Shown: in pieces, positions 17,004-24,659 of the stretch
Layout: each line of letters starts with the position of its first letter
Numbering within the stretch: position 1 is the first letter of the stretch
The notes under the pieces: model-generated
Databases searched by the model: none
What the model was told of the DNA's origin: nothing
Seen by the model: the letters and a program-made list of their open reading frames with translations, nothing else
Translations under genes and position numbers: made by a program
Source of the DNA: Candidatus Bathyarchaeota archaeon
Lineage (GTDB): Archaea > Thermoproteota > Bathyarchaeia > Bathyarchaeales > Bathycorpusculaceae
Reading direction: 5' to 3'
DNA length: 64,000 bases
Assembly (NCBI GenBank): GCA_963828195.1
Contig: CAWHDT010000007.1
Location: 160,001-224,000, forward strand

Positions 17004-17471
17004 ATGCCATCAGAGAAAAAAACCGCCAGCTCACAGTATAACGTTGAAGGAAAACAACTCGAAGCGTTTCTAGGCCCGCTGGAAGCAAACATCATCGAAA
17101 CCATATGGGGCTCCAAAAAAAGACCCATAACAGTAAGAGAAGTACTGGAAACACTTCAGAAGAAAAAGAAAATCGCCTACACCACAGTAATGAACACCAT
17201 GGACAGATTGCACGAAAAGGGCCTGCTTGACCGGCGCATAGAAAAAGGCAAAGGCGGCGTCTACTACGTTTACTGGCCAAAACTTGAAGAACAAAACTTC
17301 AAAGAAGCCGCCGTCCGCGAAGTACTGGGCAGCCTGCTTGAAAACTTCGGCGACCTCGTTACCGCGTGCCTTATCGAAAAAGCCGCCGACAACGACGAGC
17401 AACTGAAAAATTTGAAGGCGCAATTAGAAAAAACCCTCAAAGAAAAGAAAAAGAAAAGTGACCAATTATGA
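17004..17471 (+). CDS. BlaI/MecI/CopY family repressor
   Basis: LGPLEANII, AYTTVMNTMDRL..KGLL. Confidence 0.92.
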   Translation: MPSEKKTASSQYNVEGKQLEAFLGPLEANIIETIWGSKKRPITVREVLETLQKKKKIAYTTVMNTMDRLHEKGLLDRRIEKGKGGVYYVYWPKLEEQNFKEAAVREVLGSLLENFGDLVTACLIEKAADNDEQLKNLKAQLEKTLKEKKKKSDQL

Positions 17472-18784
17472 TGCTGAGCCTAAACGATTTTCTAACGCAA
17501 ATCCTTCAACCCTACTTCTTCTACTCAGCAGTTTTTCTCTCATTATCCTTTGTCTGCATCAAAGTTTTCTTGAAACTCAATCCGTCCATAAGCAGAAAAA
17601 TCCAAAGCACAATTTGGCTAATTCCGCTTTTTATTCCGATTTATGTGATGATTTTGTTTCATCCGCAGACCCTGATATCAATGGGGATACCTAAACTACC
17701 TCCAGAAACCTTTGCTTCCGCTTCCGCCGTAACAACTTCAGGCATTGTTATTGGAAAATTTGTCCCCATCAGTGCTTTTTCAGCCACGGGTCTTTTGTGT
17801 CTGGGGGGAGCAGTCGCAGCTGTGGGCTATCTGATTCTCACGGTTGTTTTGGGGCAGAGAATAGCGATGAGGGCATTTCACGTGACTATGATGTACCCTG
17901 AAGAATACGTGTCTCTTCAGGAAAAAGTGAAGGAAATCTCTTTGAAAATCGGGACTCCAGCGCCGAAGGTCGGCATGATTGACGATTTAAGACCTAACGC
18001 GTTTACAGTGGGCTACGGGAAGAAGGCAGTGATAGTTTTCTCGCTGGGCATTTTAAAGATGCTCAACATTGATGAATTAGCCGCGGTGGTTTCTCATGAG
18101 CTCGCCCATGTAAAATCAAGAGATTACCTGTTCAGAAGCCTGTCATACACTTTGAACATCCTTTCCTTTTTTAATCCTTTATCCTATTTCGCTGCGTCTT
18201 CAGCGCAAAGGGAAAGGGAGTTGCTGGCCGACGAGAAAGGCGCCGCTCTGCTTAGCCAACCCAGAGTCATGTCAGAAGTCCTCGCTAAACTTGAAGGGGT
18301 TCTTCAAATGTTTCCCAAAGAACGCTTTGCAGAGAGGCTCTCCGCAAGCTTGTTTCTTGTATCGCCCCTATCCCGCAGGTCAGAAATACTTGCCGCTCAC
18401 CCCCAGATAGCCCAAAGAGTACGTAACATTAATGTGTCTGCATCACGAACTGCGCCAAAACCGACTAAACGAGGCACGGTTGTAGCGTTGTCTCTGATTC
18501 TGATTCTGGCCGCGGCAACAGTGGGATACGGCACGATTGCTCTTCAGACTTCCTTTTCACAAAAAAGCGGCGTCATAGCAGTTAGGGTCAACGGAGCAGG
18601 CCAAATCATAACGGGGCAAACAGGAAACGGGGCTGCTTCAGCAACCATTCTTTCGCCGCCGCCGGGAAGTTTGCTTACGCCAAATTCTGGAGGGTTACCC
18701 TCCCTCCCGCAAGGAAACGCGATACTCATTCAGGGCGGAGTGGGGATTATTCAAAATTGTTCAGAGCCCGAATACCTACCATAA
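17468..18784 (+). CDS. Membrane Zn metallopeptidase (M48/M56, BlaR-like)
   Basis: PNAF, HELAH, ERELLAD, HP..RV; several TMs; coupled to blaI. Confidence 0.88.
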   Translation: MMLSLNDFLTQILQPYFFYSAVFLSLSFVCIKVFLKLNPSISRKIQSTIWLIPLFIPIYVMILFHPQTLISMGIPKLPPETFASASAVTTSGIVIGKFVPISAFSATGLLCLGGAVAAVGYLILTVVLGQRIAMRAFHVTMMYPEEYVSLQEKVKEISLKIGTPAPKVGMIDDLRPNAFTVGYGKKAVIVFSLGILKMLNIDELAAVVSHELAHVKSRDYLFRSLSYTLNILSFFNPLSYFAASSAQRERELLADEKGAALLSQPRVMSEVLAKLEGVLQMFPKERFAERLSASLFLVSPLSRRSEILAAHPQIAQRVRNINVSASRTAPKPTKRGTVVALSLILILAAATVGYGTIALQTSFSQKSGVIAVRVNGAGQIITGQTGNGAASATILSPPPGSLLTPNSGGLPSLPQGNAILIQGGVGIIQNCSEPEYLP

Positions 18785-20207: not shown

Positions 20208-21539
20208 TTATGCGTCTTTAGCGTCCATTATTGTGTTGACCAATGTATCCAGCAGTTGTAAGGAACCTCGGAAGCCAACCATGCTTCGTCTTTGGTAGCC
20301 GAATCGGTCGCTTTGCGGAAAGCCAACTCGAATAAGCGGTATGCCTTCGTCTTTGGAGATGTATTTGCCTTTACAATCGCCGATAATTAAGTCCACACGG
20401 GCTTCTTTGATTTTCTGATGTAGGTCATAGAGGTCGCCGCCAACGATTATATTCTGTTTCTCAGCGTCAACTCCGTACAATGTTGCTAGGGTCTGCATGT
20501 CTTGAGCAAACTGGCTGCCTTCAAGCGTTGTCATCACATGTACTGGCTGCATGCCAAGCTCGTAAACAAAACGGGTGATTCCTTGTACGATGTCGGGGTC
20601 GCCGAACACTGCGACTTTTGTGCCGAAGGTAATTTGGCTTGAATCAACTATGGCGTCAACTAGCAGGTCGCGTTCATCAATTAAAGATTCAGGCATGTTT
20701 TTCCCAGTCAGTGCGGTTAGGTTTGCAATGAAGGTTTCTGTGGATTCAACGCCGATTGGAAGATCCCCAAACTTGGCTGGCATGCTGTATTTTTCCTGCA
20801 GATAGTTTGCTGCGCCTTGCCCTTCATATTTGCAAAGTGGTATTGTTCCCTGCGAGTTTGAGCAGTCAGCAATTTCCTGGACTGTTGTTCCTCCACGGGG
20901 GAAATGTGGTTTAGGAAGACGCAGAGGTGCGTTGAGTGTTTGCGAGATATCGGTGAGGTATAGACCGGGGATGCCCATTTCTGCTAGGATATGTTTGATT
21001 TCTAAGACGTCGCCGGGGTTAAGCATGCCTGGAATAATGTTGACTTTGCCGTTGGGCTCTGTTTTTGGTTCAGCGAGCTGGGTGACGAGTGCTTTTATGG
21101 CATTGTCATATCCGATTACGTGGGTGCCGACGTAGCTGGGCGTGTGTATCCCAACTATTTTTGTGTGGCGCTCGTTGTTTTCGGATTTGAAGGCTTTAAT
21201 TATTCCGTGAATGTCATCGCCTGTTGTTTCGCTAAGGCAGGTGGTGATGACTGTGATTAATTCTGGGTGTTGACGGGCGATTATGTTGGATAATGCCAGT
21301 TTTAGGTTGATTGCGCCTCCAAAGATGGTTGCTTTCTCATGGAGAGAGGTGATGGCAACTTCTATGGGTTCGCGGAAGTGTCGGGACATCAAGTTGCGGG
21401 GATAGGTTGAGCAGCCCTGCGAGCCATGTATAAGCGGTACGCTACCATGAATGCCCAGAGTAGCCCAGATCGCACCGATAGGCTGGCACATACGTGGCGC
21501 GTTTATAGCGACACTTCTTTGTCTGTTAATTAGCACCAT
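20208..21539 (-). CDS. nifK: Nitrogenase component I beta subunit
   Basis: MCQPIGA, HGSQGC, TTCLSETTGDDI, TPSY; ATG at 21539. Confidence 0.88.
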   Translation of the reverse strand: MVLINRQRSVAINAPRMCQPIGAIWATLGIHGSVPLIHGSQGCSTYPRNLMSRHFREPIEVAITSLHEKATIFGGAINLKLALSNIIARQHPELITVITTCLSETTGDDIHGIIKAFKSENNERHTKIVGIHTPSYVGTHVIGYDNAIKALVTQLAEPKTEPNGKVNIIPGMLNPGDVLEIKHILAEMGIPGLYLTDISQTLNAPLRLPKPHFPRGGTTVQEIADCSNSQGTIPLCKYEGQGAANYLQEKYSMPAKFGDLPIGVESTETFIANLTALTGKNMPESLIDERDLLVDAIVDSSQITFGTKVAVFGDPDIVQGITRFVYELGMQPVHVMTTLEGSQFAQDMQTLATLYGVDAEKQNIIVGGDLYDLHQKIKEARVDLIIGDCKGKYISKDEGIPLIRVGFPQSDRFGYQRRSMVGFRGSLQLLDTLVNTIMDAKDA

Positions 21540-21541
21540 AG

Positions 21542-22918
21542 CTAATCTGCATCCCGTGTTCTGATAAACTTCCACGCGGGGCTATAGACTGACTTGTAAA
21601 TGTCTCTTGCAAATCGAACAAAGCCTTTGAAGACCATGTAGCCGCCTTTGCTTTCGTATGTGTGTCCGTTTAGGAAAGGCACGCCGTACTTGTAAGCTAA
21701 ATATTTTTCTTTGGTACCGGAGATGAACAGGTCTGGTTTGTATTTAACCATCATTTCTTCCAGTTCAGGCGCGTTTGGGTTATCAATAAGCAACGTTCCG
21801 TTTTTCACTCGGCTCACGATTTTTTCGTAGTCGTCTTCATGACCAAATGTGGTTGCGACAACGTTGACTTCCATGCCCAGTTCCTCCATAGCTCTAGGCC
21901 AATGCCAACTGCGCGGTCCGCCCTCGTAAATCATCACTTTTTTGCCCTGTAACTTTTCTCTGTAGACATCCATCTCCGATTTAATGTCTGCCATTTCTTT
22001 TGCAATAACTTCTTCGGCTTTTTGTTCTAAGCCAAAAAACTTCGCAACGATCCGCAAGTCATCAGCAGTCTGCCGCATGCCATAGAAGTCCACTTCAACA
22101 TAGGGTGTGCCGTACTTGTCCTTCATCATTTCAGCGATGTACTTGGCTGACCGTGCGCATCTTACAACGTTTAGTTTTGCATGATGCATTTTGGCTATGT
22201 CATGGATGGAAGAGTCACCCGTGAAAGTACACACTACCCGAAGCCCAATGGCTTCCAGCAGCGGCAGTATAAGCCAATCGTCCCCTCTGATGTTGTATTC
22301 TCCGACAAGGTTTATGTCATAAGGCGTCTTGTTCTGGAGTTCTTCTGTGCCTACGACCTTGTTAAACAGAACTTCGTTGCCGACGTGGTGCCCTAGACTT
22401 TGGCTTACGCCGTGAAAGCCTGGGCAGTTGAAAGCTACTACTGGTTTTCCTATGGCGGCGGTTGCACGTTTAGCGACTGCTTCTATGTCGTCACCGATTA
22501 GCCCGGCAACGCATGTTGCGTAAATGAATACTCCTTGTGCGTTTGGGAAAGCCTTGTTTGCTTCAAGTATGGATTCGTAGAGCTTTTTTTCTCCTCCAAA
22601 GACGATGTTTGATTCGCGCAGGTCAGTGGAGAAAACGTTGACCAGCTGGAAGTTTGTGTCTTTTGCAAGGTTTGGTCGTACGTCCCAGGGGTAATAGCAG
22701 CAGCCTATAGGGCCATGTTCCAGTTGAATAACGTCTTTTACAGGTCCACCCACGACACCTCTGCAGCCGGCATAAGTGCAGCCTCGCTCAGTCATGTCGC
22801 CTGGGATGGTTGCTACGTTGCAGGCTGGAATGTGGCATTCGTCTTTGTCATCTTTGATGTAAATGTGTTTTTTTCTGTCTGGGACATGCTTGTCGCATTC
22901 AGGTAAGATAAACGGTAT
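21542..22918 (-). CDS. nifD: Nitrogenase component I alpha subunit (apparent ATA start, ~458 aa)
   Basis: ERGC, [35 protein letters not shown], NGHTY; open frame extends 41 codons upstream of 22795. Confidence 0.88.
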   Translation of the reverse strand: [458 protein letters not shown]

Positions 22919-23818
22919 CTACTTCACCCCAGATTCGCTAGAGCGACCAAAGCCACTGAAATGTGTGCCGCAGGTTTCCTCGCTAGGCACCCCCATGGCG
23001 TCTGCTCTGCATTGGACGCAGTTGTGAAACTGGAATAGCATGCCTTCGCATAGGTGGCGGATTCTTTGAATTTCCTGCAGAGATGGAGCTGGAATATTGG
23101 CGAATTTTGCTTGGGGAATCAGGGGCATAATGTTCATTATGTAAGCGCCCATGTCACGTACGGTTCTGGCTACGTCAACCACATGTTCTGAGTTTATGCC
23201 GGGAATGAATACCGAGTTAACTTTGACGACTATGCCTGCGTCAGCGGCGGCTCGTAATCCGTCGAGTTGTTTTTTGCTAAGGACCTCGAACGCTTTTCTG
23301 CCCATGTACGTCTTGTTTTGGTAGCGAACGAAAGAGTAAATCTGCTCGCCTACCGTGGGGTCTAATGCGTTGATTGTTATTGTGAGGGCTGAAACGCCTA
23401 CCTCTTTTAGTTGGGCAAGTTTTTCTGGTAGCAGCAATCCGTTTGTTGAAACGCAACGGGTTAAATGTGGAAATTCCTTTTTCACTTGTCGAAGAGTATC
23501 AAATGTAACGTCACTGCTAAGGGGGTCGCCTGGGCCAGCAATGCCTACGACACGCAGTCGCGGGTCTTTTTGCACTGCAAACCGCACTCGCTCCATCGCT
23601 TCTTCAGCCGTTATCACTTTGCTTGTAACGCCGGGACGGTTCTCGTTGGCACAGTCGTATTTACGAACACAATAGTTGCAGCCTATGTTACATGTTGATA
23701 CGACGGGAAGATGTACTCTGCCAAACTTGAAATGCGCTCCCGAACCGTAACAAGGATGCTCCTGCACTAGCTGAGAGCAAATCTTTTTGCGTATCTCAGA
23801 TTTTTCATAGCTAACCAT
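22919..23818 (-). CDS. nifB: NifB radical SAM (no NifX domain)
   Basis: HPCY, CNIGCNYC, ENRPG, AGPGDPL, CVQCRADA. Confidence 0.93.
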   Translation of the reverse strand: MVSYEKSEIRKKICSQLVQEHPCYGSGAHFKFGRVHLPVVSTCNIGCNYCVRKYDCANENRPGVTSKVITAEEAMERVRFAVQKDPRLRVVGIAGPGDPLSSDVTFDTLRQVKKEFPHLTRCVSTNGLLLPEKLAQLKEVGVSALTITINALDPTVGEQIYSFVRYQNKTYMGRKAFEVLSKKQLDGLRAAADAGIVVKVNSVFIPGINSEHVVDVARTVRDMGAYIMNIMPLIPQAKFANIPAPSLQEIQRIRHLCEGMLFQFHNCVQCRADAMGVPSEETCGTHFSGFGRSSESGVK

Positions 23819-23828
23819 CTTTTGTCAC

Positions 23829-24659
<831 letters not shown>

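Follow-up and report, generated by a model that had tools for sequence, protein, structure and literature searches.

The window, a 64,000-nt stretch of a Candidatus Bathyarchaeota archaeon genome (contig CAWHDT010000007.1, contig positions 160,001 to 224,000), carries on its minus strand a head-to-tail set of five genes in the order nifH-nifB-nifD-nifK-nifV-like. This cluster, and in particular the nitrogenase alpha subunit encoded by nifD, is the subject of our analysis. A first-pass annotation of the sequence had read the alpha subunit as Vnf/Anf-like, that is, as resembling the vanadium (V) and iron-only (Fe) nitrogenases rather than the molybdenum (Mo) enzyme, and had noted that no delta (G) subunit gene accompanies it. 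The genes concerned, with a regulator gene that lies upstream of them, are the following (window coordinates; aa, amino acids).

23829..24647, minus strand: nifH, Fe protein, 272 aa; TIGR01287 score 433.3 bits, cut-off 394.35
22919..23818, minus strand: nifB, short radical-SAM (S-adenosylmethionine) form, 299 aa, no C-terminal NifX-like domain
21542..22918, minus strand: nifD, nitrogenase alpha subunit, 458 aa, single open frame
20208..21539, minus strand: nifK, nitrogenase beta subunit, 443 aa
18956..20200, minus strand: nifV-like, paralogue of the homocitrate / isopropylmalate synthase family, 414 aa
25548..25961, minus strand: Lrp/AsnC-type regulator gene upstream of nifH; AsnC_trans_reg and HTH_24 domains (Pfam)

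The nifD product has the properties of a nitrogenase component I alpha subunit: its scores against broad profiles, its P-cluster and cofactor ligands, an adjacent beta subunit and a NifH partner all agree. It passes the broad alpha models TIGR01862 (602.6 bits, cut-off 486.05) and TIGR01284 (578.8, cut-off 512.8), and stays under the cut-offs of the four equivalog models: nifD (TIGR01282, 510.8 vs 653.55), VNFD (TIGR01860, 480.2 vs 823.1, where VnfD representatives reach 917-978), ANFD (TIGR01861, 446.4 vs 873.8) and nifE (TIGR01283, 451.3 vs 505.1). Alignment points to Cys47, Cys73 and Cys136 as likely P-cluster ligands and to Cys254 and His419 as likely cofactor ligands, the last two aligning with Cys275 and His442 of Azotobacter vinelandii; Gln173, His177, Arg81 and Arg336 align with Gln191, His195, Arg96 and Arg359. 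This A. vinelandii numbering, assigned from an alignment to the NifD representative P0128 plus published papers, is also used for the diagnostic sites below. The histidine kept at position 419 is found at that column in 2 of the 11 rows classed as NifE and other. In NifK, the likely ligands are Cys18, Cys43, Cys101 and Ser135, with Tyr46 at the relay position. The encoded enzyme may reduce N2.

Among solved structures, the enzyme of Methanocaldococcus infernus (PDB 9spz/9sq3) is the best match for both subunits. NifD scores 521.5 bits against 9spz_A, followed by VnfD (441.3), AnfD (418 and 414) and A. vinelandii NifD (372); NifK scores 423.6 against 9spz_B, followed by 9p1x_B (404.6), Clostridium pasteurianum NifK (366.5), AnfK (319 and 316.4) and VnfK (312.6).

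The remaining genes are closely packed around this pair. The nifB stop codon (TAG) abuts the start of nifD; NifB has a Radical_SAM domain by Pfam, and its TIGR01290 match, which covers model positions 7-278 of 441, scores 322.3 bits and so lies under the cut-off of 343.65. Between nifD (stop TAG at 21544-21542) and nifK (ATG at 21539-21537) there is a gap of 2 nt, which leaves no room for a G gene, and a genome-wide search with AnfG/VnfG (PF03139) at E<=1 gave no match; the Methanosarcina acetivorans control exceeded the cut-off. The first-pass annotation was thus correct that neither vnfG nor anfG fits here. The nifV-like gene follows on the minus strand, some 7 nt past the end of nifK. Its product has HMGL-like and HCS_D2 domains (Pfam), and its NCBIfam scores are all under the respective cut-offs (nifV 273.1, cut-off 462.9; isopropylmalate synthase subfamily 305.2). 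It is one of five members of this family in the genome; two of the others pass the LEU1_arch cut-off, suggesting that the nif-linked copy is an extra paralogue.

Gene content of the genome

The genome has 2.83 Mb in 9 contigs and is 96% complete. NifD and NifK are its only PF00148 proteins, and the same holds for TIGR01862; neither model picks up a NifE, a NifN or a second nitrogenase, and at this level of completeness their absence is likely. No protein other than NifH matches PF00142 at E<=1e-5. On the same contig, about 60 kb from the nif genes (G000:C7:117890-121609, locus L029), a selD-like gene, a gene with a ModE domain, modA, modB and an ABC ATPase gene stand in one row; modA scores 86.4 bits (cut-off 62.5) and modB 187.9 (cut-off 182.6).

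Relatives and distribution

The closest proteins to NifD are 74-96% identical and all metagenomic, and those that are named come from Bathyarchaeota/Bathyarchaeia. Alpha subunits of 80-96% identity occur in six species-representative genomes, five of them titled Bathyarchaeota/Bathyarchaeia and one 'uncultured archaeon'. All six related loci have the H-B-D-K-V order, with nifB between nifH and nifD and the nifV-like gene after nifK. Within the class the gene is rare: 2 of 301 sampled genomes, this one included, have a nitrogenase alpha gene, and it is missing from all 14 other members of the genus in the sample. Such a patchy spread fits the lateral acquisition that has been proposed for these genes (PMC11697101). 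Near-identical DNA recurs in sequencing runs labelled soil metagenome.

A nifHBDK cluster of this kind was already published in 2024. In metagenome-assembled genomes of Bathy-6, PMC11697101 (ISME Commun 2024) reports nifHBDK without nifE/N, conserved active-site residues, clustering with the Clfx group and likely lateral acquisition; the NifD and NifK trees of that paper reportedly join Bathy-6 with Clfx. Our cluster belongs to the same lineage and has the same gene order, the same lack of nifE/nifN and a possible affinity to Clfx. Indeed, one of our related loci (L007) is from its genome Bathy6-F36_MillC; the alpha subunit there is 81% identical to ours, and the order is H-B-D-K-V. A difference lies at the start of nifD, where the six relatives have ATG and this genome has ATA. 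The main text of PMC11697101 does not mention nifV, homocitrate, P-II or the start codon. What is new here is the ATA at the nifD start, the conserved nifV-like gene and the lack of a P-II gene.

Phylogenetic position of NifD

For the tree, 144 rows were aligned, and a filter at under 80% identity kept 60 and removed 84. The rows comprise NifD homologues of 440-520 aa, NCBIfam-labelled cluster representatives, named VnfD, one AnfD and Bacillota NifD. Six of 17 non-Bathyarchaeial loci were used; L018, with a 1007-aa open frame, and L023, with an equally long match, were excluded. In these two Caproicibacter loci the NifD match spans 1978 nt, maybe because of an intein-like insertion or a fusion. 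The best 120 matches to a VnfD query included only VnfD and no AnfD, and the single AnfD came from one of five genomes searched; the reference set is without named Methanobacteria or Methanosarcina NifD.

Quick and careful trees of the 60 rows agree, with NifE as the outgroup. One row (L025) groups with NifE, and another (P0116) is the sister of Vnf/Anf. The Nif-I/II sequences form one clade (support 100/97) that does not include the NifD of the window. That protein instead falls in a 42-row clade (100/99) together with the other Bathyarchaeial rows, Clfx-like rows, Caldicellulosiruptor-type rows, M. infernus-like rows and the Vnf/Anf rows. Bathyarchaeial NifD form a clade of their own (100/100), as do the six Vnf/Anf rows (100/100, stem 0.85), and the window NifD lies outside the latter. 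Within the lineage, the Caldicellulosiruptor group, one further group, Vnf/Anf and P0121, which represents the M. infernus-like sequences, fall on one side (88/88); the other side (84/87, 31 rows) is a polytomy of the Bathyarchaeial clade, a Chloroflexi/Roseiflexus clade (100/100) and two small clades. The clade names Clfx, F-Mc and Mc are those of Garcia et al. (PMC7216921), in which the Clfx type is defined with nifB between nifH and nifD; going by organism names (Roseiflexus, Caldicellulosiruptor), we presume that they apply to our rows. Together with the TIGR01282 score under the cut-off, the tree bears out the first-pass placement of this enzyme apart from the ordinary Group I/II nitrogenases, and "near the Mo/V/Fe split" is a fair description of a protein whose well-supported clade also holds Vnf and Anf.

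Two observations on VnfD proteins were made alongside. A metagenome representative inside the Vnf/Anf clade (P0139) is VnfD-like, with a VNFD score of 595 bits that is under the cut-off; its cofactor ligand Cys275 is replaced by Ser and the Gln191/His195 motif is lost, and it is possibly a degenerate or repurposed paralogue. VnfD of Nostoc and Tolypothrix, among the best 120 matches, are often 600-760 aa long (P0278, P0279, P0287), with PF03139 (a fused G) or PF14159 behind the alpha domain, and the two long forms sometimes share a contig, as P0278 and P0286 do.

Vanadium-like motifs across the lineage

Translation of 22918-21542 gives a 458-aa protein without extension and the four motifs on which the first-pass annotation was built: an N-terminal motif ([22 protein letters not shown], residues 1-22), [10 protein letters not shown] (residues 249-258), GGPRSWHW (residues 333-340) and PFLNGHTY (residues 414-421). 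The sequences with which they had been compared were also quoted correctly: in our alignment A. vinelandii VnfD (5n6y_A) contains [34 protein letters not shown] as well as NGHGY, and the NifD-equivalog representative P0128 (863 bits) has HCYRS, GGLRP and MHSWDY. What does not hold is their use as signs of a V or Fe enzyme.

We counted the motifs in clades to which rows were assigned by their nearest tree row (Bathyarchaeial, n=22; Clfx-like, n=72; Vnf/Anf, n=8; Nif-I/II, n=7). The MPxxLxxCD N-terminus, WHW and N-G-H are spread across the lineage. Pro-358, the proline of the GGPR motif, is present in 115 of the 116 lineage rows outside Vnf/Anf and in all seven Vnf rows; the Anf row lacks it (AnfD rows read GGSKLWHW), as do the seven Nif-I/II rows. 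The lineage includes enzymes that use Mo: M. infernus NifD has the N-terminus MPFVLLDCDK and GGPRTWHW, and Roseiflexus NifD reads GGPRVWHW and NGHTYD. Since both of these use Mo, the Vnf-like motifs do not tell which metal is bound; the N-terminus, Pro-358/WHW and N-G-H mark the lineage rather than the metal.

Sites that are diagnostic of the metal, as listed by McGlynn et al. (PMC3578447), point the other way. All 22 Bathyarchaeial rows have Ala at α65, Gly at α69, Arg at α96 and Lys at α428, the Mo state as given in that paper; the eight Vnf/Anf rows have Cys, Leu/His, Lys and Gly at the same four sites. At α380 the window has Thr, which is neither the Glu of Nif nor the Lys of Vnf/Anf, and at α445, a site added here, it has Glu, with Asp in the seven Nif-I/II rows and His in the eight Vnf/Anf rows. 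The first-pass annotation had taken GGPR as the arrangement that accommodates the carbonate ligand of V-nitrogenase. This reading fares poorly: of the three markers in the carbonate loop Thr355-Gly-Gly-Pro358-Arg-Leu360, the window (Glu-Gly-Gly-Pro-Arg-Ser) keeps only Pro358, with Glu355 in place of the Thr that contacts carbonate and Ser360 in place of Leu, and that proline is also present in the M. infernus enzyme, which bears the iron-molybdenum cofactor (FeMo-co, or FeMoco). At the 14 columns that are fixed differently in the eight Vnf/Anf and seven Nif-I/II rows, the window has the Nif state at 7, the Vnf/Anf state at 1 and neither at 6; the corresponding numbers are 6/2/6 for Roseiflexus and 5/1/8 for the M. 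infernus-like row. In NifK, the third residue after the second P-cluster Cys is Tyr46, as in M. infernus and C. pasteurianum NifK, and Phe in AnfK; an Ala(D)/Tyr(K) relay is described as Nif-type and Cys/Phe as typical of Vnf and Anf (bioRxiv 10.1101/2025.10.10.681579). Taken as a whole, the Vnf/Anf-like interpretation therefore stands as to lineage and the missing G subunit, and not as a pointer to the metal.

Comparison with characterised nitrogenases

The two nearest characterised enzymes both use Mo. Roseiflexus sp. RS-1 shares with the window the nifHBDK order, the lack of NifEN, GGPRxWHW, NGHTY(D/E) and Ala65/Gly69/Arg96, and occupies a neighbouring clade in the tree; its NifD (P0100) is about 55% identical to ours. 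It differs in having C-Q-R-S and a shorter N-terminus, where the window has C-A-R-S and a full MPxxLPECDK-type N-terminus, and in being bacterial and thermophilic, whereas the present host is an archaeon with DNA in soil-labelled runs. Roseiflexus NifDK is reported to become active with NifB, NifH, molybdate, homocitrate and SAM and with no NifEN present, with vanadate and Fe(II) being no substitute for molybdate; preformed FeMo-co also activates the apo-enzyme, and the product ratios after reconstitution are described as A. vinelandii-like (PMC11573651).

The M. infernus NifDK resembles the window enzyme in its compact subunits, lack of G, Vnf-like N-terminus, GGPRxWHW motif and Ala/Tyr relay, and differs in C-Q-R-S and N-S-H. 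Its operon is described as including NifI1,2 regulators and accessory proteins, whereas this genome has no P-II gene, and, judged by P0121, it stands on the other side of the 88/88 vs 84/87 split. Growth with this enzyme is reported to need Mo, the metal was identified by anomalous diffraction, and its FeMoco is described as chemically identical to that of A. vinelandii (bioRxiv 10.1101/2025.10.10.681579).

A. vinelandii VnfDGK (5n6y) shares the N-terminal motif, C-A-R-S, G-G-P-R-x-W-H-W and N-G-H-x-Y with the window enzyme, which differs in having no G subunit, in a NifD that scores under the VNFD cut-off and in its position outside the Vnf/Anf clade. At the diagnostic sites VnfD has Thr355 and Leu360 where the window has Glu355 and Ser360, and Cys, Leu, Lys, Lys, Gly and His where the window has Ala65, Gly69, Arg96, Thr380, Lys428 and Glu445.

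Which cofactor?

On this analysis, we propose that the cluster probably encodes a complete, minimal, NifEN-independent nitrogenase of Bathyarchaeia that most likely bears FeMo-co, with its vanadium-like features being traits of the lineage. Mo-like active sites were argued earlier for the uncharacterised group (PMC3578447), and the same was predicted for Clfx (PMC7216921).

A number of observations weigh against this proposal, some touching the metal and others the function of the cluster. Foremost among the former is C-A-R-S: Mo enzymes are described as having C-(Y/Q/H)-R-S, and V and Fe-only enzymes C-A-R-S (PMC3578447), such that the window has the V/Fe state, as given in that paper, at α276. 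The Ala is found in 19 of 22 Bathyarchaeial rows, 26 of 72 Clfx-like rows, none of 22 rows from other uncharacterised groups, all eight Vnf/Anf rows and none of the seven Nif-I/II rows, and we found no characterised C-A-R-S enzyme outside Vnf/Anf in the nitrogenase literature examined. The NCBIfam scores of NifK rank vnfK (401.6) over nifK (365.5) and anfK (357.7), all under their own cut-offs. The tree, built from the D subunit only, leaves the order of clades within the lineage unsettled (84/87, 88/88), and its Nif-I/II references are few (one Nif-I-type and six Bacillota rows). An exclusive clade of Bathyarchaeia and Vnf/Anf, a grouping chosen after the tree was seen, is 15.75 log-likelihood units worse and is not rejected by the approximately unbiased (AU) test (p = 0.232). 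ModABC transporters are not specific to nitrogenase. Lastly, none of the nifHBDK papers listed in a literature search deals with the metal of a Bathyarchaeial enzyme.

These points could be taken to mean that the enzyme carries a different cofactor, FeV-co plus carbonate or an Fe-only cluster for instance, and functions with no G subunit. The presence of Pro-358, the unrejected grouping with Vnf/Anf and the higher score of NifD against VnfD than against Mo NifD (441.3 vs 372 bits, A. vinelandii-type structures) would suit this idea. Nonetheless, we regard it as very unlikely. NifD fails the VNFD and ANFD cut-offs, lacks Thr-355 and Leu-360 of the carbonate loop, and has none of Cys65, Leu/His69, Lys96, Lys380, Gly428 and His445, all fixed in the eight Vnf/Anf rows. 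The features that it does share are also found elsewhere, Pro-358 and WHW in the FeMoco-bearing M. infernus NifD and C-A-R-S in more than a third of Clfx-like rows. There is no G gene; in the VnfD examples looked at, G is either encoded next door or a fused part of VnfD itself. With Roseiflexus NifDK, both vanadate and Fe are reported to have failed (PMC11573651). C-A-R-S is the one feature that leaves a small probability for a different cofactor.

Two further alternatives also concern the cofactor. Garcia et al. proposed for Clfx, and for lineages without NifEN, a 'proto-Mo-cofactor', a Mo cluster not identical to canonical FeMo-co (PMC7216921). The absence of NifEN here is in keeping with that proposal, as are α276 Ala and α355 Glu/Gln, which are unlike both Nif-I/II and Vnf rows. 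However, Roseiflexus apo-NifDK is reported to become active with preformed FeMo-co and, when reconstituted, to give A. vinelandii-like product ratios (PMC11573651), and M. infernus is described as having the chemically identical cofactor to A. vinelandii; we consider a proto-cofactor highly improbable. The combination of C-A-R-S and a Pro-358 loop with a Mo-type relay, and with no NifEN, G or P-II, also means that an undescribed cofactor variant (a different heterometal or belt ligand) could be built on NifDK, which would make this a fourth kind of nitrogenase active site. To this we give a very slim chance.

The nifD start codon and the state of the cluster

The first codon of nifD, directly after the nifB stop, is ATA (Ile; 22918-22916), and an ATG does not appear until codon 42 (22795). 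In all six related loci the same position is ATG. Contigs of four public runs from three studies (records 3, 9, 11 and 15) agree with the window across the nifD start, which argues that ATA is not an assembly slip; these contigs have a depth of 2-6, which is low, and one run is possibly the source of the window. Upstream of the ATA, a Shine-Dalgarno-like GGGGTGA and the abutting nifB stop are both kept. We read the ATA, from sequence, as a recent or tolerated near-cognate start, and coupled initiation at this codon after the nifB stop is plausible.

The observations that bear on function begin here. Given that all six relatives have ATG, the ATA may mean weak nifD expression and reduced synthesis of NifD. 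A whole-genome search for P-II proteins (GlnB/GlnK/NifI) at E<=0.001 gave no match, 13 of the 14 controls being positive, and no diazotrophic growth has yet been reported for Roseiflexus (PMC11573651). In four RNA runs (X17-X20), 0.04 of sampled words were present. It is conceivable, then, that the cluster is in decay, has low expression or does not serve N2 fixation, being a nitrogenase by descent with a minor or different role in vivo, and the rarity of the gene in the class and genus would agree with this. We consider such a state unlikely. All five genes are intact and full-length compared with their relatives, and all metal ligands are kept. Against the nearest relative (L003), the ratio of nonsynonymous to synonymous substitution rates (dN/dS) lies in the range 0.03-0.10 for H, B, D and V, with 0.055 for D, and 0.050 for K once an indel is handled. 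The preserved GGGGTGA and nifB stop would permit coupled initiation, and the ATA variant may simply be recent.

Neighbouring genes

The Lrp/AsnC-type gene upstream of nifH is kept in L003 (73.5% identity) and has no match in the other five loci; that this regulator is a part of the nitrogenase system is only a guess. The NrpR-type operator GGAA-N6-TTCC occurs twice in the window, where chance alone would give 1.7, and neither copy is near nifH. Directly downstream of the nif cluster, on the plus strand (17004-18784), a penicillinase-repressor (BlaI-like) gene overlaps a BlaR1/M48-peptidase-like gene.

Proposed maturation and implications

We propose the following scheme for a FeMo-co-bearing enzyme encoded by this cluster. 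NifB would make the Fe8S9C precursor, NifB-co. Apo-NifDK, with its P-clusters in place, would take up NifB-co and act as the scaffold, by analogy with Roseiflexus; the genome lacks NifE/NifN, and NifDK is most likely its own maturation scaffold, as in that organism. NifH, molybdate and homocitrate would then finish FeMo-co on NifDK, with homocitrate probably supplied by the nifV-like synthase and molybdate by ModABC. In the mature system, NifH would pass electrons for N2 reduction to NifDK as the catalytic α2β2 component. The vanadium-like traits would be inherited ones, common to an early-branching lineage that later gave rise to Vnf and Anf.

For genome scans, the N-terminal, GGPR-WHW and NGH motifs are unsuited to calling V- or Fe-nitrogenases; better markers are α65, α69, α96, α380, α428, Thr355/Leu360 and the G subunit. 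The very small gene set (H, B, D, K and a NifV-like protein, with no NifEN) is attractive for transfer to other hosts, a case that the Roseiflexus (PMC11573651) and M. infernus papers make for their own systems. If the enzyme is active, it would represent N2 fixation by a non-methanogenic archaeon, and Bathyarchaeia may be suppliers of nitrogen in soil.

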